From: Actinomycetota bacterium
GTDB lineage: Bacteria; Actinomycetota; Acidimicrobiia; Acidimicrobiales; SZUA-35
NCBI GenBank assembly: GCA_039029735.1
Contig: JBCCFL010000002.1
Span: 196,521 to 260,520, forward strand
DNA length: 64,000 nt
Direction: 5' to 3'
Position 1 is the stretch's first letter. The number at the start of each line of letters is the position of its first letter. Made by a program: the position numbers and the translations under genes. Positions 8,067 to 41,481 of this stretch are shown one piece after another. The notes under the pieces are model-generated. The model ran no database searches, was not told the origin of the DNA, and was given only the letters and a program-made list of their open reading frames with translations.

Positions 8067-8100
8067 TGATCGGAGCGAACGCTGACCGAGGTGGCAGCGC

Positions 8101-10623
8101 CTACTCGGCCCGGAGCACGTCGAGGATGTCGGCCCGGGAGGCCGAGCGGGCTGGCCACCAACTGGCCAGCACGCCGCCGGCGAGCCCGGCCACCACGATG
8201 AGCAGTCCGGACACGATGCTCGTCTCCGGGTAGTCCACCTGGCCGTCGGAGAGGGCCTGGAAGAAGCCGGTGGCCGAGACCCAAGCCAGGCCGAGGCCGG
8301 ACACCACACCAACGAGGGCGAGCAGGCCGAACTCCGACACGAGCGACCAGAAGATCTGGCGGCTGCTGCCACCGGCGGCCCGGATGGCGGCGATCTCACC
8401 GACCCGCTCCGAGATGGCGAGCGACACCGTGTTGGCGATGCCCACCAGGGCGATGACGACTGCCACGGCGAGCAGGGCGTAGACCAGCGCCAGGATCGTG
8501 TCGAGGCCCGAGCTGAGGCTGTCGATGTACTCGTCGATCGTGAGCACGTCGATCGTCGGGATCCCGACGGCCTCGCTCAGCGCCCGCTCGTCGGCGTCGC
8601 CGAGGATGTAGAGCGTGGTGGCCGGCTCGTCGTAGCCGACCACGGAGGCCAGGTCGGCGTCACCGATGATCGCTGGCTGGGGCGTACCCGGCAGCGACGT
8701 TTCGATGACGGCAGCCACCTCGAGTTGGGTCGGACCGGCCACCGAGGTCACCGTGAAGGTGTCGCCGGCCGTCACTGCGAGACCATCAGCAGTGATCTGG
8801 TCGATCACCACGCTGGTGCCGCTCACATCGTCGAGCGAACCGGCATTGACCTCGAAGTCGTAGGCGGCGGTCATCTCGTCGAAGTCGGTGATGGCCGTGG
8901 AGAGCGCACCCCCGCCGGGCCCCGCCCGCTCGATCTCGACGTCGCCGGCCACTGCCGTTGAGTAGATCGGGATCACCGAGTCCACGCCATCGACGGCCTC
9001 CAGGTCGGTGATCACGTCGTCGCCGATCACGGCTTCAGGGAAGGCCCCGATTCCCTGCACCACGTTGTCGGCTCGCAGGGCCGTGGCCGAGTCGCCGGCC
9101 AGGAGCTGGCCGACCGTGGCCGCCATCAGCGTGAAGAAGGCGATGAGGCTGATGCCGATCATCAGGGCACTGGCGGCGGCCGAGGTACGGCTGGCGTTGC
9201 GCTCCAGGTTGCGGCTCGCAACCGTGCCGGCGGGGCCGGTTGTGCCGAGCACGGGCCGGGCCACACGGGCGGCGATCCGGATCAGGTACTCGGCGCCGAG
9301 GTAGAGGGCGGCGAAGGCGCCACCGATACCGGCACCGGCCCACCAGATCGAACCCTGGGTCATGCCGTAGCCGAGACCGACGACGGCGACCACCAGCATG
9401 AGCACTGCTGCGATGCCCCGGTTGCGGCCGGCCGACGGCGGTTCGAGCTCCGCCGACCGGAGCGCCTCGATCGGCGCCACGGCGGTGGCCTTGCGTGCCG
9501 GCCAGACGGCGGCGGCGATGGTCACGCCCATGCCGACGAACACACCGATGGCGATCGCCGAGGGGGCGATGGCGCTGGAGCGTTCGATCGTGAGGCCGAG
9601 CCAGTCGAGGAACACACCGAGCAGGTTCACCCCGCCCAGGCCGGCGAACACACCGACGATCGTTCCGACGGCGCCGAGCAGCGCCGCTTCGAGCACCACC
9701 TGCACCATCAGCTGCGAGCGGGTGGTGCCGACGAGGCGGAGCAGGGCCAGTTCCTCGGTGCGCTGGGCGAGCGACACGGTGAACGTGTTGGTCACGATCA
9801 CCATGCCGACCACCACGGCGATCACGGCGAACACCGTGAGGAAGGTGCTGAAGAAGCCGAGGGTGGAGTTGATCAGATCGATCTGCTCCTCGATCCAGTC
9901 GGTGCCGCTCTGTACCTCGGAGCCGGCAGCCAAGGTGGCAACGTCGTCCACGCTGGCGCCCGGGGCGTCGGCGAAGTCGACCAGCACGAGGTCGTAGCCC
10001 TGGACTGGGGCCAGCGTCGGGTCGCTCGGGTCGAGCAGCATCGTGGACACGTACGGATCGTTGTCGTTACCACCGAAGGTGGCGGTGCCGACCAGTTCGG
10101 CTTCGGCGATACCGGCGTCGGTCACGTAGGTGAAGGTGTCACCAACGGCCAGGCCGGCCCGATTGGCGGTCGTCACGTCGAGTGCCGCCTCGCCCACCGC
10201 TGCGGGGGCAGCGCCCTCGGCGATCTCGAAGGCATTGAGGGATGACGATCCCAGCCAGGGTTCGGCGATGTTGTTCGACGACTGATCCTGCCCGGAGGCG
10301 TTGCCGTCGGCGTCGATCACCTGGGCGTAGGCGTTGGTGAACCCGACGGCCTCGTAGCCGGCGGCGTTGAGGGAGTCGACGGTCGAGGTCGGCACCGATG
10401 CGGCGATGGCGGCCGTTGGGCCGTCGGCCTCGGACACCTCAGCCCCGGTGACGACGGCGTCGACCTCGCTGTGGGCGTCTCGCATGGGTTCGCCGACATC
10501 GGCGATCGAGGTGGTCAGGAGCAGGGTCGACACGATGAAGGCGACCGAGAGGGCGATGGCGATGACCGTGAGCACATAGCGGTTCCGCTTGAACCAGGCC
10601 ATCTTGAGGGTGCGGTTGATCAT
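8101..10623 (-). CDS. ABC transporter permease with two FtsX/MacB-type domains
   Basis: The product is 840 aa. It has two repeats, each a large extracytoplasmic domain followed by an FtsX-like 3-TM bundle. Its start lies 1 nt after the ATPase stop. Confidence 0.85.
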   Translation of the reverse strand: MINRTLKMAWFKRNRYVLTVIAIALSVAFIVSTLLLTTSIADVGEPMRDAHSEVDAVVTGAEVSEADGPTAAIAASVPTSTVDSLNAAGYEAVGFTNAYAQVIDADGNASGQDQSSNNIAEPWLGSSSLNAFEIAEGAAPAAVGEAALDVTTANRAGLAVGDTFTYVTDAGIAEAELVGTATFGGNDNDPYVSTMLLDPSDPTLAPVQGYDLVLVDFADAPGASVDDVATLAAGSEVQSGTDWIEEQIDLINSTLGFFSTFLTVFAVIAVVVGMVIVTNTFTVSLAQRTEELALLRLVGTTRSQLMVQVVLEAALLGAVGTIVGVFAGLGGVNLLGVFLDWLGLTIERSSAIAPSAIAIGVFVGMGVTIAAAVWPARKATAVAPIEALRSAELEPPSAGRNRGIAAVLMLVVAVVGLGYGMTQGSIWWAGAGIGGAFAALYLGAEYLIRIAARVARPVLGTTGPAGTVASRNLERNASRTSAAASALMIGISLIAFFTLMAATVGQLLAGDSATALRADNVVQGIGAFPEAVIGDDVITDLEAVDGVDSVIPIYSTAVAGDVEIERAGPGGGALSTAITDFDEMTAAYDFEVNAGSLDDVSGTSVVIDQITADGLAVTAGDTFTVTSVAGPTQLEVAAVIETSLPGTPQPAIIGDADLASVVGYDEPATTLYILGDADERALSEAVGIPTIDVLTIDEYIDSLSSGLDTILALVYALLAVAVVIALVGIANTVSLAISERVGEIAAIRAAGGSSRQIFWSLVSEFGLLALVGVVSGLGLAWVSATGFFQALSDGQVDYPETSIVSGLLIVVAGLAGGVLASWWPARSASRADILDVLRAE

Positions 10624-10624
10624 G

Positions 10625-11422
10625 TCAGCTCAGCTCCCGGATCTTGCCCAGCACGTCGTCGACGGTGGGGTTGAGGGCTTCGCCGACGAGGCGGCCGTCC
10701 TGGACGTACACCACCCGATCGCAGTAGCTGGCCGCCACCGCGTCGTGGGTCACCATCACGATGGTCTGGCCGAGTTCGTCGACGGCCTTGCGGAGGTAGG
10801 CGAGGAGCTCGCCCGAAGTCTTGGAGTCGAGAGCGCCCGTCGGCTCGTCGGCGAAGATCACGTCGGGGCGCGGGATCATCGCCCGGGCAACGGCCACGCG
10901 CTGGCGCTGGCCGCCCGACAGTTCGCTCGGCCGGTTGTTGAGGCGGTGGTCGATGCCGAGCACTCCGGCCAACTCGGCCAGGAAGTCCTCGTCGACGGCG
11001 GCCTTGGAATCGAGGTCGACCGGGAGGGTGATGTTCTCCCGGGCGCTGAGGGCCGGTACGAGGTGGAACGACTGGAAGATGAAGCCGAGCTTCGAGCGGC
11101 GCAGGACCGACAGTTCCTGGTCTGACAGCGTGGACACGTCGACATCGCCGACGAAAGCCTGACCCTCGGTGAGGCGGTCGAGGCCGGACTGGCAGTACAT
11201 CAGCGTGGACTTGCCCGAACCGGACGGCCCCATGACGGCGGTGAACTCACCGCGGCGGAAGCCGAGGGTGACCGAGTCGAGGGCGGTCACAGCGGCATCT
11301 CCGGTGCCGAAGACCTTGGTGGCACCCACGAGGCGGGCCACGTTGTCGTTGCCGTTCTGGAGGGGGTCGGTGGATCCAGCGGTCGATCCGCTGGTGTTGA
11401 GCGTTGTGGATGCGGTGTTCAT
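10625..11422 (-). CDS. ABC transporter ATP-binding protein (MacB/LolD-like)
   Basis: It has Walker A GPSGSGKST, the LSGGQRQR signature and Walker B VIFADEPT. The start is ATG 11422, or alternatively GTG 11488. Confidence 0.9.
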   Translation of the reverse strand: MNTASTTLNTSGSTAGSTDPLQNGNDNVARLVGATKVFGTGDAAVTALDSVTLGFRRGEFTAVMGPSGSGKSTLMYCQSGLDRLTEGQAFVGDVDVSTLSDQELSVLRRSKLGFIFQSFHLVPALSARENITLPVDLDSKAAVDEDFLAELAGVLGIDHRLNNRPSELSGGQRQRVAVARAMIPRPDVIFADEPTGALDSKTSGELLAYLRKAVDELGQTIVMVTHDAVAASYCDRVVYVQDGRLVGEALNPTVDDVLGKIRELS

Positions 11423-11533
11423 GTCGACGACCGTAGAAATCGAACATGAGCCCGCCCTGGGCCGAACCTGAGGAGAAGCTGAAGTCACCTCGAATGCTGG
11501 CGATGGCCCCTCGGAGCCACCACCCTGGGGGTC

Positions 11534-12295
11534 ATGAACACCGAAGGCGCTGCCTCATCGATCCGGACCGTGCTCCTGGTCGAGGACGACCGGGGCCTCC
11601 GCGAGTCGCTGGCCACGGTGCTCTCATACGAGGGGCACACGATTCTCCAGGCGGAGAGCGCCGAGGATGCAGCAGGGCTCGTGGCTGCGCACCAGCCGGA
11701 TCTGATCGTGCTCGACGTGAACCTCCCCGGTCAGGACGGCCTCGGGTTCCTCCGCGATCTGCGGAGCACTGGCGACGGGCGGCAGGTGCTGCTGCTCACC
11801 GCTCGCCACGAGGTGGCCGACCGGGTAGCCGGTCTGGACGCAGGAGCCGACGACTATTTGCCGAAGCCCTTCGCCCTCGACGAGTTGCTGGCCCGAGTGC
11901 GGGCCATGCTGCGCCGGGTGCCCGCCATTGATTCTGCACCGCCGACACCTGCAGCGCCCGGGGGCGGCTCAGCCGAGAGCCGAACGGTCGGCTCCGTGGT
12001 GGTGGAACCCGGCGCACGGCGGGTGACCGTGGAGGGTGTTGAGGTGGATCTCACCAAACTGGAGTACGACCTCCTCGATCTGCTGGTGACGCACCTCGAT
12101 CAGGTGCTCACGCGATCGGTGATCCACGAGCGGGTGTGGGGCTACGACGACGACTACAGCTCGAACACCCTCGAAGTCGCCGTGTCGAGCCTCCGACGCA
12201 AGATCGAACGCGGTGCCGGGCCTCGGGTGATCCACACGGTGCGGGGGGTCGGGTACGTGGCCCGGGTGCCATCAGGTGGGGGAGCGAGCGCATGA
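11534..12295 (+). CDS. OmpR/PhoB-type response regulator
   Basis: The receiver domain has VLLVEDD, DLIVLDVNLPGQDG and KPF. The winged-helix C-terminus has TVRGVGY. The interdomain linker is long and Pro/Ala-rich. Confidence 0.9.
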   Translation: MNTEGAASSIRTVLLVEDDRGLRESLATVLSYEGHTILQAESAEDAAGLVAAHQPDLIVLDVNLPGQDGLGFLRDLRSTGDGRQVLLLTARHEVADRVAGLDAGADDYLPKPFALDELLARVRAMLRRVPAIDSAPPTPAAPGGGSAESRTVGSVVVEPGARRVTVEGVEVDLTKLEYDLLDLLVTHLDQVLTRSVIHERVWGYDDDYSSNTLEVAVSSLRRKIERGAGPRVIHTVRGVGYVARVPSGGGASA

Positions 12296-30313: not shown

Positions 30314-32215
30314 TCACCGCAGGTAGAAACCGAGGTCTCCCTCGTCGTAGCTGGCAGCCGTCTTGGACGGCGTGTTGTGCCAGCCCTTCCAGTTGCCGCT
30401 GCCGTTGTCCGACATCACATGGCCTTCGGAGAAGGTGCTGCTGCGGTGCATGCCGTAGGTCTCGGAGCCGTCCCGCACGGGGTAGATGTTGAAGTTTCCG
30501 CCGCCCTCGGCGGTGAGCATCAGGTAGTAGGTGGTGCCGGCCTTCAACTGGGCTGACGACGACAGGCGGGCCGACGCCCAGCTCTGGCGATCCGATGCGA
30601 TCTGGTTGGCCGGGATCGACGCGGAGGCCACCTCGGTGCCTCGGGAGTCGACCACACGAAGCCGCAGGCTGCCGCTGCCGCTCACGCGGCGCACGTCTAT
30701 CCCGATCTCGTTGAAGGTCACGTTGCGGCGCGGCGTCATCGACTGCCGCACCCGATTCGATCCCGAGATCGGGCGGGGGTCGCGGACCCACACTTCCATG
30801 TAGCCGTTGCCGAAGGCCGACCCATCGGCCATCTCGATCGACAGAATTGGCGACTGGATGTTGTTGGGGTAGTCGCGGAAGGGGCGGTTGACCGTTTGGT
30901 CGGACCACGAGGACCCACTGCCCCTCAGCAGGCCCCACTCGCGGGTGGAGGGGCGGGTGGCCGCTGGGCTCGACGTGTCGTCCCAGATGCCCTGGACACC
31001 GACCCAGTTGGCGGTCGGGTTGGCGTCCACGTTCGAGAACACGGCGTGGTACACGCGACCGGCCTCGACCCGCACTGGTGAGTTGAGACGCATCGCCTGG
31101 AACGTGATCTGGCGTTTGCGTTCGGTGGTGGCGTTGGGGAGGCTTCCACCGGACAGCCCATAGGTGGCAGGAGACGACTGGCCGAGCACCCGGGACATGT
31201 CGGGCTGACCCGACCCGTTGTCGGCCACGATCTGCACGACGAGCTTGCCCCCGGTGCCGCTGGCGTAGCCGCCTCTGCTCTTGTTCACCGCAATGTAGGG
31301 CCGGACCGACACCATGTCGCCCGACCGTTGGGCGGAGAAGCGGAACGAGACCTTGTCGGTCTTGATCGTGTGGTTCTGCAAGGCTCGGGCCGACCAGGGG
31401 TTGCCGTAGGGCACGCCACTGCTGGCCTGCGGGGCGGGCGCTGGAGTGGGGGCCTTCGTGGTTGTCGGGGCCGTGGTGGTCGTCGGGGCCGTGGTCGTGG
31501 TCGGCGCGTTCGTGGTGGTGGGCGCCTTGGCCGTGGTGGGTGGAGCCGTGGTGGCGGAGGTGGCCTTCGTGGTCGGTGTTCCGGCCGTGGTGGGTGGAGC
31601 CGTCCGTGTGGCGGCGGCCTCGCTGTCGGTGGTGTCGCCGCCGGTGTCGGTGCGGTCGGTGTCGTCGGTGTCGGCGGCGTTGGGGTTGGACGTCGCCTTC
31701 GCTGGTGGCGACGTGGCCTCCTGCGGCGGGGTCGGCGCTGCGGCCGCCACCTGCTGTTCTGCCTCGGCATCGGAAGCCGGCGCAGGTGCGGTGTCGTCAG
31801 GGGCGGTGGCGGTGGGAGCGTCTGGGCTCGGCGGAGCCTCGCCAGCGGACGTGTCGTCGACGGCGGCACCCGCGGCCGACGTGTCGTCGGTGCCGTTCTC
31901 CGGAACCGGGATCCGCGACGAGGCCGTTCCGCCAGCGTTCGTCAACTCGTCGACGCCGTCGGGAGAGGGGGCGGACTGTGCGGCGGGTCGCGGCAGCGCC
32001 GGTACTGCGAGGTTGGCTGCGTCGGGAAGCTGCGAGCCGGTCTCGTCATCGATCGAGGTGGTGGGGCGGGCCGCGGTGGTTGTCGTGGCGGGAGGAGCTG
32101 TGTTCTCAGTCGCCAGTTCGACACCCCCGGAGAGGTCCGAACTGGAGCAGGCCGAGGCACCCACGGCCACGACAATGAGAATTTGAAGCGACCTCGATCG
32201 CCAGGACACAGTCAT
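30314..32215 (-). CDS. lipoprotein with a ~300-aa Pro/Thr/Ala/Asp-rich linker and a ~330-aa C-terminal region of unknown function
   Basis: ATG 32215 has a purine-rich RBS. The lipobox is VGASAC. I recognise no motif in the C-terminal part. Confidence 0.7.
   Translation of the reverse strand: MTVSWRSRSLQILIVVAVGASACSSSDLSGGVELATENTAPPATTTTAARPTTSIDDETGSQLPDAANLAVPALPRPAAQSAPSPDGVDELTNAGGTASSRIPVPENGTDDTSAAGAAVDDTSAGEAPPSPDAPTATAPDDTAPAPASDAEAEQQVAAAAPTPPQEATSPPAKATSNPNAADTDDTDRTDTGGDTTDSEAAATRTAPPTTAGTPTTKATSATTAPPTTAKAPTTTNAPTTTTAPTTTTAPTTTKAPTPAPAPQASSGVPYGNPWSARALQNHTIKTDKVSFRFSAQRSGDMVSVRPYIAVNKSRGGYASGTGGKLVVQIVADNGSGQPDMSRVLGQSSPATYGLSGGSLPNATTERKRQITFQAMRLNSPVRVEAGRVYHAVFSNVDANPTANWVGVQGIWDDTSSPAATRPSTREWGLLRGSGSSWSDQTVNRPFRDYPNNIQSPILSIEMADGSAFGNGYMEVWVRDPRPISGSNRVRQSMTPRRNVTFNEIGIDVRRVSGSGSLRLRVVDSRGTEVASASIPANQIASDRQSWASARLSSSAQLKAGTTYYLMLTAEGGGNFNIYPVRDGSETYGMHRSSTFSEGHVMSDNGSGNWKGWHNTPSKTAASYDEGDLGFYLR
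31430..31610 (-). repeat. coding tandem repeats for APTTT(T/K) units
   Basis: Repeated ggccgtggtggtcgtcgg-like units were read directly inside the lipoprotein linker. Confidence 0.7.
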
Positions 32216-32311
32216 CCTCGCCTTCCTCTGCCCCAGCGCAACGCCCGAGGGTAGCAGCGCGAGGTTGTCACACAACGGTAATGGCGGCCAGAACGGCATA
32301 TATCCTCATGG

Positions 32312-33423: not shown

Positions 33424-33609
33424 TCAGGGGTCCATCAGCGAGACGACCTCGCTGTAGGGATTGCTCGTCTCACTCCCGAAGATCGCGAGCGCCCCGACCG
33501 TGACGAGCACCATCAACGAGATCAAGAGCGCGTACTCCACCAGTGACGCCCCCCGCTCGTCGCCACCGTGCCGGTGTGCGTCGTGCTCGGCATCGTGGTC
33601 GTGGAGCAT
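33424..33609 (-). CDS. flp: Flp/Fap family type IVb prepilin
   Basis: GGAGG lies 5 nt before ATG 33609. The product is MLHDHDAEHDAHRHGGDERG|ASLVEYALLISLMVLVTVGALAIFG.., with the G|xxxxEY Flp motif over 61 aa. Confidence 0.8.
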   Translation of the reverse strand: MLHDHDAEHDAHRHGGDERGASLVEYALLISLMVLVTVGALAIFGSETSNPYSEVVSLMDP

Positions 33610-36021: not shown

Positions 36022-37608
36022 ATGCGGGCCAACGATGATCAGCGCGCCGGCGGCTACGTGCTGCCGGCCACGGCGCTGCTCGTCGTGCCGCTCCTGGTGT
36101 TCGCGGCGCTTGCCGTGGACGTCGGCGGCTGGACCGTGGAGGCGAACCGCACGCAGGCGGCGGCCGATGCGGCGGCGCTCGCCGGTGCCCCCCTGCTGCC
36201 TGATCAGACCAAGGCCACCCAGGCGGCCCAGTACGTGGCGGCCCAGAACGGCTTCGTCGACGGGGCCGACGGCACCACCGTGGCGGTCGAGTTCCCCGGC
36301 AATCAGTCGATCCGGGTGGTGATCACCGTCGAGTCGGATCTGTACTACTCCGGGATCGTGATGGAGAACCCGGTCACGATCGGTCGCTTCGCCGAGGCCG
36401 AGGCCCTGTCGCCCATCGGGCTGAGCTCACCGACGAACGTGCTCGGCTTCGGCCCCTACTCGCTCGACGGCTCGCCGGTTGCCAACTACTGGATCCTGGA
36501 GAACAACGAATGCCAGGTCGGCCACTACGGCGACATCAAGGCCGCCCGCTACCTGTCGTCGCCCTGGTGTGGGGTTGGTCTCGGGCTGCCCGAGAATCCC
36601 GAGTTCAAAGGGCGCACCGATGGCCGCGACGGTGGCTACATGTATGTGGTCAAGATCCCGGCCGGTTTGACCGTCGGATCGAGGCTCTACATCTTCGATC
36701 CCGGCAAGTGCCCGGGCTATGGCTCGAAGCCCTCCGACGGGAGCTGGAACCGTCCCGACGGCCAGGGAACCAACCTCGAGTTCCGCCAGTGGAGCACCAA
36801 CGACTCGCCGCTGGTGCCAACCGACGACTTCCCGGTCACGGGCTGGATCCGCTACGACGACTGCGCCGAGGACCTGCCATACCCCGCCGCGTCGTGGACC
36901 GACCAGACCGACGGGTGGACCTCCACCGCCTTCACGTTCCCACCCAATACGTCAGGCGAGACCGAGTACCACCTCATCCAGACCCGAACCCTGCCGGCCA
37001 CCCGGTCGGGCTGGAACCACTACGCCTTTTGGGTGCGCCCCGACGATGGCACCACGTCATGCCTCACGATCGGGTCGACCACGTGTCCGTCCGTTGGAGC
37101 GGAGACCTGGGCCCCCACCCAGGCGCGGGGCGAGGTGGCCGGGGTGCCGATGGAGCTGTTCCTGGCCGAGGTCGGTCCTGAGCACGCCGGCCGGGTGATG
37201 ACGGTGCGGCTGTGGGATCCGGGTGAGGGCATGAACAACATCCAGGTGATCGACCCGCTCGACCGCTCGCTCGACTTCACCTGGACCTCCGACGACACCC
37301 TCAACTACGCCGGCACCAACCCGTCGGACACGTGCTCGGGCAACCCCTGCCTGTACCTGGATCCCACGTTCAGCGGATATCCGGCCAAGCTCAGCAATCC
37401 CGGGTGGGGAAACCACTGGCGGTTCAACGGCCGGGTGGTCAACCTGAACGTGCCCCTCGACAGTCAGGTCGACTTTCCCGCCTACGCCACCAGTCCCAAC
37501 GGATTCTGGTTCCGTATCCGCTTCGAGCCCACGCCCACCAACGCCGCGCGCGAGTGGGCGTCGTTCGGCGTCAGCATCGGCGGCGACCCGATCCGGCTCA
37601 CGGACTGA
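36022..37608 (+). CDS. TadG-like (Tad/PF13400-type N-terminus) pseudopilin with a large Cys-containing C-terminal domain
   Basis: GGYVLPATALLVVPLLVFAALAVDVGGWTVEANRTQAAADAAALAGA is the TadG-type N-terminal module. I recognise no vWA motif. Confidence 0.65.
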   Translation: MRANDDQRAGGYVLPATALLVVPLLVFAALAVDVGGWTVEANRTQAAADAAALAGAPLLPDQTKATQAAQYVAAQNGFVDGADGTTVAVEFPGNQSIRVVITVESDLYYSGIVMENPVTIGRFAEAEALSPIGLSSPTNVLGFGPYSLDGSPVANYWILENNECQVGHYGDIKAARYLSSPWCGVGLGLPENPEFKGRTDGRDGGYMYVVKIPAGLTVGSRLYIFDPGKCPGYGSKPSDGSWNRPDGQGTNLEFRQWSTNDSPLVPTDDFPVTGWIRYDDCAEDLPYPAASWTDQTDGWTSTAFTFPPNTSGETEYHLIQTRTLPATRSGWNHYAFWVRPDDGTTSCLTIGSTTCPSVGAETWAPTQARGEVAGVPMELFLAEVGPEHAGRVMTVRLWDPGEGMNNIQVIDPLDRSLDFTWTSDDTLNYAGTNPSDTCSGNPCLYLDPTFSGYPAKLSNPGWGNHWRFNGRVVNLNVPLDSQVDFPAYATSPNGFWFRIRFEPTPTNAAREWASFGVSIGGDPIRLTD

Positions 37609-37615
37609 CGTCGCC

Positions 37616-38281
37616 GTGTTCTTCGCGTTCCTCGTTCTCCGGCACCGCCGACTCGTTGCCTCCGAACGCGGCACGTCGTTGGTGACCTACTCCCTGGTGT
37701 TGGCCTTGGTCACCGTGTCGTCGCTGGGAGCTGTCGACGCGCTCCTTGCCTCGTCGAGCTCGCTGCTCGAGGACAGCGGCGACGACATAGGCACGCCCCG
37801 CTCGTACCGCAACGACGCGGTCCTCGAGGCGAACGCGCCACCGGCATGGGCGTCCACCACGTTGCCGCCGACGCTCGTGACGTTCGTCGAGAAGCCGATC
37901 CAAACGGCGGGAGGTTGCCTGGCGGTGAGTGGCACCACGATCGGTCAGGTGCCCTGTGGTGACCCGGCCGAGACGCTCTTCTCCGGGCTCAGCGAGGACG
38001 CCACCCTCATCACACTCAGCACGGCCGATGCCACCGTGTGCGTGCACGGCGACCCGGCTGGGGTACCCGACACGGTCACGATGATCCCGTGCACTGGCTT
38101 GCTTCCCGAATGGGAGCAGATCGCCGCTGAAGGCGTGGCCGTGATGTATCGCCACCAGGCGTCGGGCCTCTGCCTCACCGGCGTGGCCACCGGCGCACCG
38201 GTACCGCCACCAGCAGCCCTCGTACTCGCCACCTGCGACGAATCCCCGCAACAGGTCATGACCCTGGTGTACGGCGGATGA
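37616..38281 (+). CDS. Flp-type pilin N-terminus fused to a putative ricin-B-like beta-trefoil domain
   Basis: ..RLVASERG|TSLVTYSLVLALVTVSSLGAV aligns to the Flp at 33424-33609. The C-terminal ~130 aa has three Cys-pair subrepeats. Confidence 0.6.
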   Translation: MFFAFLVLRHRRLVASERGTSLVTYSLVLALVTVSSLGAVDALLASSSSLLEDSGDDIGTPRSYRNDAVLEANAPPAWASTTLPPTLVTFVEKPIQTAGGCLAVSGTTIGQVPCGDPAETLFSGLSEDATLITLSTADATVCVHGDPAGVPDTVTMIPCTGLLPEWEQIAAEGVAVMYRHQASGLCLTGVATGAPVPPPAALVLATCDESPQQVMTLVYGG

Positions 38282-38886
38282 GCCGGGCGAGGGGGCACCG
38301 CCGGAGTGAACGTGGTGCGAGCATGATCGAGACGGCTCTCGTCACCCCGATCTTCCTCGCCTTGGTGTTGATGATCATGGAGGTGGGATTCCGACTCCGC
38401 AACGACATCATCGCCGCCAACGCGTCGGCCGCTGCGATGCGGGCCCTCACCGTTGCCGGCAGTAGCCCCGAAGCCGACTACCTCGCGCTGCGAAGCCTGG
38501 AGCACGGCCTCTCGACGATCTCGCTCGAGGACGTGGAGCGGGTGGTGGTGTATCGGGCGTCCGGGCCCGGCGATCAGGTGCCGGCTGCCTGCCTGTCGGT
38601 GCCGATTCCAACCGGGCTCGACTGCAACGGGTACACCGCTCCCGACTTCTACCTCGCATACGCCAACGCCGTCGGCACGCCAACTGGTCACTGGGGTTGT
38701 GGCGTGACCGCCCGTGACGACCGTTGGTGCCCGACCACGCGCCAGTCGTCACTCTCCGACCCGGGTGGCCCCGATCACATCGGGATCTATGTGCGGCTGA
38801 GCCGAGGCACGCTCACCGGCGCCATCGGCGGGGCGCAGATCATCGAGGTCGACCGCATCGCCCGCATCGAACCGCAGAGCAACTGA
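38278..38886 (+). CDS. TadE-like pseudopilin
   Basis: The N-terminus is HRRSERG|ASMIETALVTPIFLALVLMIMEVG. There is an ATGA overlap with the upstream gene. Confidence 0.75.
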   Translation: MSRARGHRRSERGASMIETALVTPIFLALVLMIMEVGFRLRNDIIAANASAAAMRALTVAGSSPEADYLALRSLEHGLSTISLEDVERVVVYRASGPGDQVPAACLSVPIPTGLDCNGYTAPDFYLAYANAVGTPTGHWGCGVTARDDRWCPTTRQSSLSDPGGPDHIGIYVRLSRGTLTGAIGGAQIIEVDRIARIEPQSN

Positions 38887-39482
38887 TGGCGCCACCGCCG
38901 ACCATCGGAGCGCCGCGGGGTGCATGTACCGCCACGCGTCACGAGCGAGGGGCCGCGATCCTCGAACTCGCCTTCGTGTTCGTGCCGTTGATCCTGATCG
39001 CCGTGATCACAGTGGAGCTCGGGCTGATGTGGAAACAGCAGCTCGACGTCGACCAGTCGGCTCGGGCCGGCGCTCGGGCGGCGGCGGCGTTGACCAACGA
39101 CCCCGAGGCCGACCGTGAAGCACTGCGGTCCCTCGTGGGGTCGTTGTCGCCGGAGGCGCTGGCCAATGTCGATGCCGTGGTGATCTACCAGGCCCCGGCC
39201 TCGGGGGACATGCCCGGAATCTGCGCCATCTCCAGCACCTCGATGTGCAATCGGTACCCGGCATCAGTGCTGGCTGACCTCGACGACGACAGTCGTTGGG
39301 GGTGCGGGGGCGCGGCGCATGACCGGTTCTGGTGCCCCACCGCCCGTGACCCGCAGCTCCACGCGCCGGTCGAGGCCGGAGTTCGCATCGAGTTCCGGCA
39401 CGACTGGCGCCTCGGCATGTTCCCTGACGGCGTCGACCTGTCGGCGACGACAGTCATGCGCCTCGATCCGCTGATCCGCTGA
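38886..39482 (+). CDS. TadE-like pseudopilin (paralog)
   Basis: The N-terminus is TRHERG|AAILELAFVFVPLILIAVITVELG. There is a TGATG overlap with the upstream gene. Confidence 0.75.
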   Translation: MAPPPTIGAPRGACTATRHERGAAILELAFVFVPLILIAVITVELGLMWKQQLDVDQSARAGARAAAALTNDPEADREALRSLVGSLSPEALANVDAVVIYQAPASGDMPGICAISSTSMCNRYPASVLADLDDDSRWGCGGAAHDRFWCPTARDPQLHAPVEAGVRIEFRHDWRLGMFPDGVDLSATTVMRLDPLIR

Positions 39483-39549: not shown

Positions 39550-41481
39550 ATGACCTCCTGGCACAAGGTGCTCACCCCCGACGAGCTGCCCGAGGGCCGC
39601 GTCACCACGGTCACGATCGGCCGTCGCTCACTGGCTCTCACCCACTACGACGGCCGTTACGGCGCGCTCGACAACCGTTGCCCCCACCAGGGTGGTCCGC
39701 TCGGGGAGGGCTCCATCGAGAAGGGCTGGCTCCGGTGCCCCTGGCACGGGTACGACTACTCGCCCCACGACGGCCAGCCGCCGGCCGGCTTCTCCGATGC
39801 GCCGCCATGTTTCGCAGTCGAGGTTCGCGACGACGGTGTGTACGTGGAGCTGCCACCCGAGCCCGCGCAACCACGAACCGTCTCGGACGTGATGGTGGAG
39901 ACCATGATCAACTGGGGGGTCGACACCGTGTTCGGCATGGTGGGCCATTCCAACCTCGGTTTCGCCGACGCCATGCGCAAAGCCGAGGGTCGCGGTGACC
40001 TCCGCTACATCGGGATCCGCCACGAGGGTGCCGCTGCGTTCGCCGCCAGCGCCTACGGCAAGCTCACCGGCCGTCTTGCCGGCTGCTTCGGCATCGCGGG
40101 CCCGGGTTCGACCAATCTGCTCACGGGGCTCTACGACGCCAAGGTGGACCGCGCCCCCGTGCTCGCTCTGTCGGGCCAGGTGCCGTCGAAGGTCATCGGC
40201 CGGGGTGCCTTCCAGGACCTCGACCTCACCGGTGCGTTCGCCGACGTGGCCCGCTACTCCGAGACCATCCATTCCGGTTCCAACCACGCCGAACTGATGA
40301 CGCTCGCCTGCAAGACGGCGATCATCGAGCGCGATGTTGCCCACCTCGTGTTCCCCGACGAGGTGCAGGAGATCGCCTCCGACGCTGCTGCTGGTGGTCC
40401 GGTCGGCCGCACCGGCAACCGGGGGATCGCGCCGCCGGCCGAGGTGCTGGCCGCAGCCGCTGATCGCCTCGCCGCCGCCGAACGGCCACTGGTGATCGTG
40501 GGGGCCGGAGCCCGCCACGAGATGCCGGCCGTGCTGGCCCTGGCCGAGCAGATCGGAGCGCCGATCGCCACCACGTTCAAGGGCAAGGGGCTCGTGTCGG
40601 ATCGTCACCCGCTCGGCTGCGGTGTGCTCGGGCGTAGTGGCACCCCGATCGCCAGCTGGTTCATGAACGAGAGCGATCTGATCGTCACCTTCGGGGCGTC
40701 GTTCGCCAACCACACCGGCATTGCCGAGTACAAGCCGATCATTCAGATCGACGACGATCCGATGGCGCTCGGCCGCTTCCATTCGGTCGAGATCCCCGTT
40801 CAGGCGAACATCGCGGTGGCCGCCGCTGCGTTGGCCGACGCGGTGGCCGGACGTGCCACATGCATCGATCACCGGCCCGAAGTGGCCGAGCGGTGGGAGA
40901 TCTGGCGGGCGGAGAAGGCGTCTCGTCTGGCCGATGATCACGGCAAGGGCCTTGGTGCCGCCGCCCTGTTCGACTCGCTCACCCGGGTGTGTCCCGAGGA
41001 TGCCGTGCTGTGTGTGGACGTCGGCAACAACACCTACAGCTTCGGTCGATACTTCGAGGCCACCAATCAAGACGTGCTCATGTCGGGCTACCTCGGCTCG
41101 ATCGGCTTCGGCTTCCCTGCTGCGATGGGGGCGTGGGCCGCTGTTGGTGGCAGTCGCCCAGTGGTCAGTGTGTCGGGCGACGGTGGGTTCGGTCAGTACG
41201 CCATGGAGATCACCACTGCGGTGAAGTACGGGATGAACATCACCCACGTACTTATGAACAACGGCGAGTTGGGCAAGATCTCCAAGGAGCAGCGGAGCGC
41301 CGAGTTCGATGTGTGGCAGACGAGCCTGCACAACCCGTCGTTCGCGGCGTTCGCCGAGTTGAGCGGCGCACTCGGGATCCGAGTCACCGATGCATCGGAA
41401 CTCGACGAGGCGCTTGCCCGCGCCCTCGCCCATGACGGCCCTGCGCTCGTCGAGGTGATGACCGACGCCGCTCTCGTCTGA
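39550..41481 (+). CDS. Rieske [2Fe-2S] domain fused to a TPP-dependent enzyme, paralog 2
   Basis: It has CPHQGGPLGEGSIEKGWLRCPWH and GDGGFGQYAME..NNGELG. It has 643 codons and is colinear with paralog 1. Confidence 0.85.
   Translation: MTSWHKVLTPDELPEGRVTTVTIGRRSLALTHYDGRYGALDNRCPHQGGPLGEGSIEKGWLRCPWHGYDYSPHDGQPPAGFSDAPPCFAVEVRDDGVYVELPPEPAQPRTVSDVMVETMINWGVDTVFGMVGHSNLGFADAMRKAEGRGDLRYIGIRHEGAAAFAASAYGKLTGRLAGCFGIAGPGSTNLLTGLYDAKVDRAPVLALSGQVPSKVIGRGAFQDLDLTGAFADVARYSETIHSGSNHAELMTLACKTAIIERDVAHLVFPDEVQEIASDAAAGGPVGRTGNRGIAPPAEVLAAAADRLAAAERPLVIVGAGARHEMPAVLALAEQIGAPIATTFKGKGLVSDRHPLGCGVLGRSGTPIASWFMNESDLIVTFGASFANHTGIAEYKPIIQIDDDPMALGRFHSVEIPVQANIAVAAAALADAVAGRATCIDHRPEVAERWEIWRAEKASRLADDHGKGLGAAALFDSLTRVCPEDAVLCVDVGNNTYSFGRYFEATNQDVLMSGYLGSIGFGFPAAMGAWAAVGGSRPVVSVSGDGGFGQYAMEITTAVKYGMNITHVLMNNGELGKISKEQRSAEFDVWQTSLHNPSFAAFAELSGALGIRVTDASELDEALARALAHDGPALVEVMTDAALV

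Follow-up and report, generated by a model that had tools for sequence, protein, structure and literature searches.

A probable Tad pilus tip cassette, detached from its motor and including a beta-trefoil Flp-type pilin, in an uncultured Actinomycetota lineage

What might four adjacent pilin-like genes do when no pilus machine is encoded beside them? This question is raised by the genes g1 to g4, which lie at positions 36022-39482 of a 64-kb stretch of Actinomycetota DNA (henceforth the window). With a probability of roughly 70%, we read this operon as encoding the minor pilins for the priming or tip complex of a type IVc (Tad/Flp) pilus that is built by a tad core encoded elsewhere. The interest of the locus rests mainly on g2, a modular Flp-type pilin with a beta-trefoil, and on the wider class of proteins indicated by the relatives of this trefoil pilin. 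The cassette and a separate prepilin gene are arranged as follows (a slash marks the processing junction in all motifs below).

36022-37608, + strand: g1, TadG-related large minor pilin; 528 aa; PF13400
37616-38281, + strand: g2, Flp-type modular pilin; 221 aa, GTG start; beta-trefoil C-terminus
38278-38886, + strand: g3, TadE-family pseudopilin; 202 aa; PF07811; leader ...SERG/ASMIE
38886-39482, + strand: g4, TadE-family pseudopilin; 198 aa; PF07811; leader ...HERG/AAILE
33424-33609, - strand: stand-alone short Flp prepilin; 61 aa, ...DERG/ASLVEY; mature chain ~41 aa

The four cassette genes run in one direction and nearly abut. A gap of 7 nt separates g1 from g2, while g2 and g3 overlap by ATGA (38278-38281) and g3 and g4 by TGATG (38884-38888), the ATG of g4 lying at 38886 and not at 38884. 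Every junction of the tightly coupled four-gene unit described in the first-pass annotation was confirmed on the DNA, the letters of the four N-termini quoted there are correct, and an independent gene call on matching DNA from a metagenome contig (Logan SRR22824298) returned the same four genes. The GC content of the window is 65-72% throughout, and the closest named relatives of the g1-type key protein belong to the Acidimicrobiia. A scan for promoters and terminators was uninformative, with no promoter-like site and two terminator-like sites, both on the wrong strand. The proteins contain eight (g1), six (g2), four (g3) and five (g4) cysteines.

The pilin-class identity first assigned to g1, g3 and g4 holds, since all three are placed above threshold by Pfam models, a result that speaks for a Tad minor-pilin set. 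G1 matches PF13400 (Tad) with E=5.6e-11 and 43 bits (cut-off 22.3) over aa 11-56, at the N-terminal hydrophobic helix, and has 51 homologues under the NCBI name "pilus assembly protein TadG-related protein". PF07811 (TadE, cut-off 22.9) is matched by g3 with E=3.4e-8 (33.9 bits) and by g4 with E=1.4e-8 (35.2 bits). These two proteins are paralogues (30% identity, E=1e-20) that carry the G/XXXXE prepilin motif followed by a hydrophobic helix; G13, A14, E18 (the Glu at +5) and four cysteines are invariant in 12 orthologue and paralogue sequences. An AlphaFold2 (AF2) model of g1, with a predicted local distance difference test score (pLDDT) of 85 and a predicted template modelling score (pTM) of 0.82, contains helices at 9-58 and 62-75, a sheet at 86-128 and beta-rich structure beyond. 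The predicted architecture is thus a pilin-like domain at aa ~9-128 followed by an all-beta distal region of ~400 aa that holds the eight cysteines, an N-terminal pilin domain with a large distal one being also described for KilN/TadG tip pilins (PMC12075869). No solved relative of g1 was returned by Foldseek (E<1e-3) or by a PDB sequence search, no vWA/MIDAS domain was detected in it by Pfam, Foldseek or PDB sequence, and the Foldseek and PDB-sequence searches gave no relative for the TadE family either.

At 221 aa, g2 falls outside the size of Flp prepilins (~50-80 aa), and NCBI annotates it as a hypothetical protein. It opens with a leader (...SERG/TSLVTY) and a hydrophobic alpha1 helix; beyond a linker, aa ~95-215 (nt ~37898-38260) form a C-terminal beta-trefoil of the ricin-B type, whose six cysteines are invariant in orthologue alignments. 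The trefoil kinship became visible only through an exhaustive HMMER search and a profile of the g2 family: a word-seeded search had found 2 relatives and a profile search 7, whereas the exhaustive search yielded ~30 full-length family clusters, with 37 matches at E<1e-10. PF00652 is matched by 17 of 28 family members (best 1.2e-17), and the C-terminal part of the g2 profile reaches long proteins of which nine out of ten tested are Ricin_B_lectin by Pfam. Among PDB sequences, the family profile matches CEL-III (2.4e-17), the CBM13 modules of xylanases (4.5e-12) and ricin B (7e-11). The top Foldseek matches of g2 are all beta-trefoils, with probability 1.0 and a target-normalised TM-score of up to 0.75.

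The other end of g2 is that of a Flp pilin. PF04964 is matched by 9 of the 28 family members (E<0.05), and the N-terminus of the profile matches the Tad pilins 8u1k and 8u2b, solved by cryo-electron microscopy, at ~1e-3 from residue 1 of the mature chain. Outside the sublineage of the window, every g2 orthologue carries G/xxxxEY (canonical ERG/ASLVEY); at +5, a Thr is found in the window g2 and its 71%-identical relative, and E-Y in five more distant orthologues. As was first proposed, g2 is thus a predicted Flp-like pilin, an assignment made at the level of its family. The joining of an Flp-type helix to an exposed beta-trefoil in g2 likewise speaks for a tip set.

A gene for a short Flp pilin lies intact 2.4 kb upstream of the cassette. 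Its 61-aa product fits the 50-80-aa range of Flp prepilins and carries the canonical G/ASLVEY (G/XXXXEY) motif; it matches PF04964 below threshold (E=7.5e-4, 19.7 bits against 32.2), and its A21 aligns, weakly (E=1.7), with residue 1 of mature 8u1k and 8u2b. We regard the short Flp as a candidate major pilin that may belong with the cassette.

Does the shared ERG junction reveal anything further about processing? It is conserved among cassette orthologues, and ER-G occurs in 70 of 123 Flp-like matches, with [EQD]R-G in 86%, in a sample biased by the ERG present in the very profile that was used to draw it. Judged by these alignments, the junction is a hallmark of the family and the commonest one in the pilin class, offering no distinctive clue: it is compatible with one peptidase, yet evidence of nothing unusual. 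The argument in the first-pass annotation from a shared ERG to one common prepilin peptidase therefore falls. So does the supposed uniformity of the junctions, given the Thr at +5 of g2 and the RAG/GY of g1, which has no Glu at +5 and where nothing supports processing. Loss of the +5 Glu is found in 27 of 84 long Flp-type proteins versus 3 of 39 short ones. GspK-type minor pilins offer an analogy for a first, tip-most subunit without this Glu, and by that analogy its loss in long Flp-type proteins would fit such a position.

Long Flp-type proteins are numerous in metagenomes. Many of 200-500 aa have a Flp-type leader and helix followed by a ricin-B, PKD, pentapeptide-repeat or DUF642 module (P0092, P0098, P0122, P0124, P0137, P0156, P0159 and L014:5532-6650, where P and L numbers denote individual proteins and loci), and a large subgroup carries the leader QRG/ATLTGY, with Gly at +5.

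We then asked which machinery might serve the cassette. The window contains no tadA, tadB, tadC, tadZ or cpaB and no prepilin-peptidase candidate. A bulk Pfam scan of 49 other open reading frames (ORFs) in it returned metabolic, regulatory and transport families only, and no T2SSE. When the Pfam-verified TadA, TadB, TadC, TadZ and CpaB of a related Chloroflexi locus served as phmmer seeds against all ORFs in the window and at 57 other loci, the sole match in the window was a response-regulator receiver domain. The window ORFs with multiple transmembrane segments encode FtsX, a kinase, DUF2177, VIT1 and a Na+/H+ exchanger, and none is a candidate of prepilin-peptidase size. All three scans bear out the lack of assembly genes noted at the outset.

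The order g1-g2-g3-g4 (TadG-X-TadE-TadE) is kept in five independent genomes at g1 identities of 49-66%. The contigs that carry these orthologous loci measure between 24 kb and 3.6 Mb. In the flanks, examined up to ~10 kb, housekeeping genes stand on either side of the cassette (ilvBNC, ddl, a Mur ligase and a Na+/H+ exchanger), and within that distance there is neither a tad core nor a short Flp gene. The cassette ORFs are intact in all six genomes. TadE genes inside a tad locus, beside tadA, tadB and tadC, are thus found neither in the window nor at the five orthologous loci.

A link to Tad systems emerged from more distant relatives. A scan of genomes returned g1 relatives at 48 loci, which belong to Acidimicrobiia, other Actinomycetes and Chloroflexota. 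HMMs made from the g1 and g3/g4 alignments reveal a module that recurs there, in which full-length g1 homologues (HMM positions ~8-519, including the whole C-terminal region) and g3/g4 homologues usually stand in the order TadE-TadE-TadG. In a Chloroflexi locus (L024), the module closes a canonical flp-cpaB-tadZ-tadA-tadB-tadC-tadE-tadE-tadG locus; in two Actinomycetes loci (L028 and L031), it stands head-to-head with tadZ-tadA-tadB-tadC plus an flp gene. Because full-length g1, g3 and g4 homologues adjoin complete tad cores in other lineages, the cassette is, by this association, a genuine Tad module. By contrast, the module is detached at every Acidimicrobiia locus (~10-kb flanks), and no CpaF-type ATPase lies near any of them.

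In Chloroflexia loci, TadE-TadE-TadG cassettes occur in tandem, two or three per locus. Chloroflexia metagenome-assembled genomes (MAGs) have three copies in L042, two in L039 and further tandem copies in L025, each with a full-length g1-type TadG. By analogy, this arrangement recalls the multiple interchangeable tips of Myxococcus.

Several relatives of the cassette differ in composition. The cultured Actinospongicola halichondriae Hal317 (L013) likewise has four genes, in another order and with another C-terminal module: a long Flp-type pilin (~8080-8650) stands directly before TadE (8611-9273), TadE (8982-9890) and TadG (9863-11548). Its long Flp-type pilin carries RDRG/VALVEY, a mature chain of ~190 aa and a Thr/Pro linker, and has no Pfam domain. 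Two loci from one JGI metagenome (L054:8736-10811 and L055:10001-11752) encode a shorter TadG-type protein of 470 aa that matches HMM positions 10-396, with one TadE after it and two small unannotated genes before it; this variant may be a degenerate or rearranged form of the cassette. Several loci of Nocardioides-type Actinomycetes have a Mg-chelatase-like gene of the ComM/YifB type no more than ~2.5 kb from the TadE-TadG module (L017:12338-13930, L030:11996-13921, L044:7119-9119 and L049:11856-13853); in L044 this gene stands immediately upstream of the module. ComM is linked to natural transformation, and this neighbour could hint at a role in competence or could simply reflect conserved synteny.

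How might such a set work? In the model that we favour, all four proteins would be inserted into the membrane by their N-terminal hydrophobic helix, and a TadV-type prepilin peptidase encoded elsewhere would cleave g2 to g4, and also the short Flp, behind the conserved Gly. On the TadB/TadC platform of a tad core that we infer to lie elsewhere in the genome, alpha1 helices would then pack into a bundle made up of the two TadE paralogues, g1 with its pilin-like domain and g2 with its Flp-type helix. This bundle would nucleate Flp polymerisation, driven by TadA. At the tip, g1 would offer its disulfide-stabilised, beta-rich domain and g2 its beta-trefoil as a contact surface for adhesion, possibly to glycans.

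Several results weigh against this model. No tad core or prepilin peptidase could be shown for this organism in the 64 kb of the window, or for any close relative in flanks of ~10 kb. All of g1 to g4 score below the NCBIfam cut-offs, including those of the Rv3654c/Rv3655c models, and g2 alone matches no Pfam or NCBIfam model. Of the three Pfam families named for these proteins in the first-pass annotation, PF13400 (g1) and PF07811 (g3 and g4) stood, while PF04964 did not, being missed by g2 and reached only below threshold by the short Flp. The AF2 model of g2 is moderate (mean pLDDT 64, trefoil domain ~75-82). The Asp of the canonical "CLD" is missing from all three trefoil subdomains of the window protein (CLA, CVH and CLT), and a QxW-like motif is present in the beta subdomain only (PEW, with Glu for Gln); the gamma subdomain has Qx-hydrophobic and the alpha subdomain no such motif. 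Across the 28 family members, the "CLD" Asp occurs 2, 1 and 4 times in the three subdomains, and QxW mainly in the beta subdomain. This Asp serves sugar binding at sites 1-alpha and 2-gamma of ricin B. Because it is missing and QxW is mostly lost, glycan binding by g2 is not supported by its sequence. Of the "lectin-like pilin" first described, the beta-trefoil fold stands, supported by profiles, PDB sequences and Foldseek; the lectin function does not. Finally, TadE/F of Micrococcus luteus were undetected in sheared pili (PMC4322843), so a tip location is not general knowledge for monoderms.

We weighed the favoured reading against three others. Orphan status could be an artefact, if the window cuts through an ordinary tad locus or if close relatives normally have the cassette next to one, and distant homologues do adjoin tad cores (L024, L028, L031, L048 and L050). 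Yet 36 kb upstream and 24.5 kb downstream of the cassette are free of tad genes, and the five orthologous loci have housekeeping neighbours on both sides. We consider this reading, which the first-pass annotation had named as its own refuting case, extremely improbable, and for the window and the flanks examined it is refuted. A better case can be made for proteins that never enter a filament, forming instead a membrane-anchored surface or wall-spanning complex that acts as anchor, guide or stand-alone adhesin, possibly as a relic after loss of the tad core. TadG, like TadE/F of M. luteus, has in the past been put forward as an anchor or guide (PMC4322843 for M. luteus), and an accessory basal structure was suggested for the M. 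luteus proteins, which were not found in sheared pili (PMC4322843). The lack of assembly genes in 64 kb and in orthologous flanks and the missing +5 Glu of the window g2 point the same way. Against it, the G, A and +5 Glu of g3/g4 are invariant across ~50% divergence and the ORFs are intact in six genomes, which argues for selection on prepilin-type maturation and not for a relic; moreover, the short Flp gene, at a distance of 2.4 kb, is intact, and homologous trios sit inside working-type tad loci. We regard a non-filament complex as unlikely.

Still less likely, in our view, is that the cassette serves another type IV filament motor, of the PilB/PilT type (T4a-like), in place of a CpaF/TadA core, with a retraction ATPase as its partner in Acidimicrobiia. 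Such an ATPase is indeed encoded near two cassettes. In an Acidimicrobiia MAG, a PilT/PilU-family ATPase (L009:811-2373; TIGR01420, 456 bits against a cut-off of 319) stands immediately upstream of TadE-TadE-TadG, and in A. halichondriae a PilT-like gene (L013:3141-4304) lies ~6 kb upstream of the module; no Acidimicrobiia locus showed a CpaF-type ATPase nearby. To our knowledge, Tad systems are usually said to lack PilT. These two loci are the only ones, however, and neither belongs to the window's own clade. The window and the five orthologous loci contain no T2SSE-family gene, and where a motor adjoins full-length homologues it is always a tadZ-tadA-tadB-tadC set. The leaders, moreover, are of the Flp/TadE type (G/xxxxE[YF]), substrates of TadV-type peptidases (PMC4322843). 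A tip or priming set for a Tad pilus remains the reading that we prefer.

The surroundings of the cassette were considered as well. Membership of the cyclic nucleotide monophosphate (cNMP)-binding gene and of the amidohydrolase in the system was rejected; these two window genes are incidental neighbours, because the immediate upstream gene is different at each orthologous locus. An origin as a mobile island was rejected in view of the loosely syntenic housekeeping surroundings and the uniform GC content. Two further window genes encode unusual proteins. At 39550-41481 (+ strand), a 643-aa protein joins a Rieske [2Fe-2S] domain at its N-terminus to an entire thiamine-pyrophosphate enzyme of three domains, a fusion kept in a relative (L002:329-2263); a separate, ordinary ilvB-type gene is also present in the window. 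At 30314-32299 (- strand), 1.1 kb from the stand-alone Flp gene, lies the gene for a predicted secreted protein of 661 aa, whose low-complexity region, rich in Ala, Pro and Thr, is very long and whose C-terminus matches DUF4082 at threshold.

Tad pili are widespread and serve adhesion, predation and DNA uptake, and their tips have only recently been seen as specifying function, in Myxococcus Kil and Caulobacter CpaL. The same tip logic appears to extend to an uncultured Actinomycetota lineage, with a TadG/TadE/TadE module apart from its motor plus a trefoil Flp-type pilin. More tentatively, at less than even odds, we propose that g2 represents an unrecognised class of modular type IVc pilins, in which a linker joins a minimal Flp helix to an exposed binding module, and that these pilins together with a portable TadG/TadE/TadE cassette could provide actinobacterial and Chloroflexi pili with exchangeable, ligand-specific tips uncoupled from the motor. 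Modules in the proposed class are the ricin-type trefoil, PKD, pentapeptide repeats and DUF642 plus ricin, and Gly, Ser or Thr often stands in for the +5 Glu. If modular Flp-type pilins are indeed tip subunits, the concept of the modular pilin would extend from type IVa to type IVc, and a Flp motif with a C-terminal module, often without the +5 Glu, would be a sequence handle for predicting the ligands of environmental Tad pili. A. halichondriae, a cultured relative with a similar cassette, makes the tip-pilin idea testable.

How does the cassette compare with known systems? A minor-pilin or tip cassette detached from its machinery is not, as first supposed, an undescribed arrangement. Myxococcus xanthus has four "Tip" clusters of kilLMN genes (TadE/F/G-like), Tip1-4, three of them at sites apart from the kil clusters and the kil core; tip3 adds a Flp-type minor pilin, KilO, and the authors of this description propose TadEFG as pilus tips in general (Herrou et al. 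2025, PMC12075869). The clusters described there share several features with the window cassette: TadE-, TadF- and TadG-like genes cluster away from the Tad core, the large TadG-like pilin has a distal domain without PDB relative in both, and several cassettes occur per genome in M. xanthus, as they do here in Chloroflexia loci. Unlike the diderm predator M. xanthus, the window comes from a presumably monoderm actinobacterium, and its order begins with TadG. KilO is moreover a 59-aa all-helical Flp, whereas the 221-aa g2 has a ricin-type beta-trefoil.

In Caulobacter crescentus, cpaL is an orphan gene for a TadG-like large minor pilin outside the pilus cluster, and CpaL is predicted to form a tip complex with CpaJ and CpaK, two small minor pilins, atop a filament of the Flp-type PilA (PMC12607857). 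Like CpaL, g1 is a TadG-like large minor pilin encoded away from a pilus cluster; CpaL has a vWA/MIDAS domain and g1 has no vWA. In Caulobacter only cpaL is detached, whereas in the window the whole minor-pilin set is.

The tad loci of M. luteus, Bifidobacterium breve and Mycobacterium tuberculosis place the minor pilins after tadA-tadB-tadC in the same locus, while tadV is encoded elsewhere (PMC4322843, PMC6916266). The window resembles them in having a Flp, two TadE/F-type minor pilins (G/XXXXE) and a PF13400 TadG-like protein, but its minor-pilin genes do not stand behind tadA-tadB-tadC. Because flp genes are almost always inside tad loci (Angelov et al.), the detached layout is atypical for characterised Actinobacteria.

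A Flp-type pilin fused to a ricin-type trefoil was not described in the literature searched, which is absence of evidence only; detached minor-pilin genes are thus already known, while the lectin-fold Flp-type pilin seems to be undescribed. Its nearest parallels are the modular type IVa pilins of Streptococcus sanguinis, PilB with a vWA module and PilC with a lectin module (cited in PMC12075869 and PMC6916266). There too, in a monoderm, the N-terminal module of a pilin carries an adhesive or lectin-type module that is exposed on the pilus. The S. sanguinis proteins differ in their complete globular pilin domain, their N-methylated class III signal and their lectin module, which is concanavalin-like; g2, by contrast, combines a minimal Flp-type helix, a linker and a ricin-B beta-trefoil.

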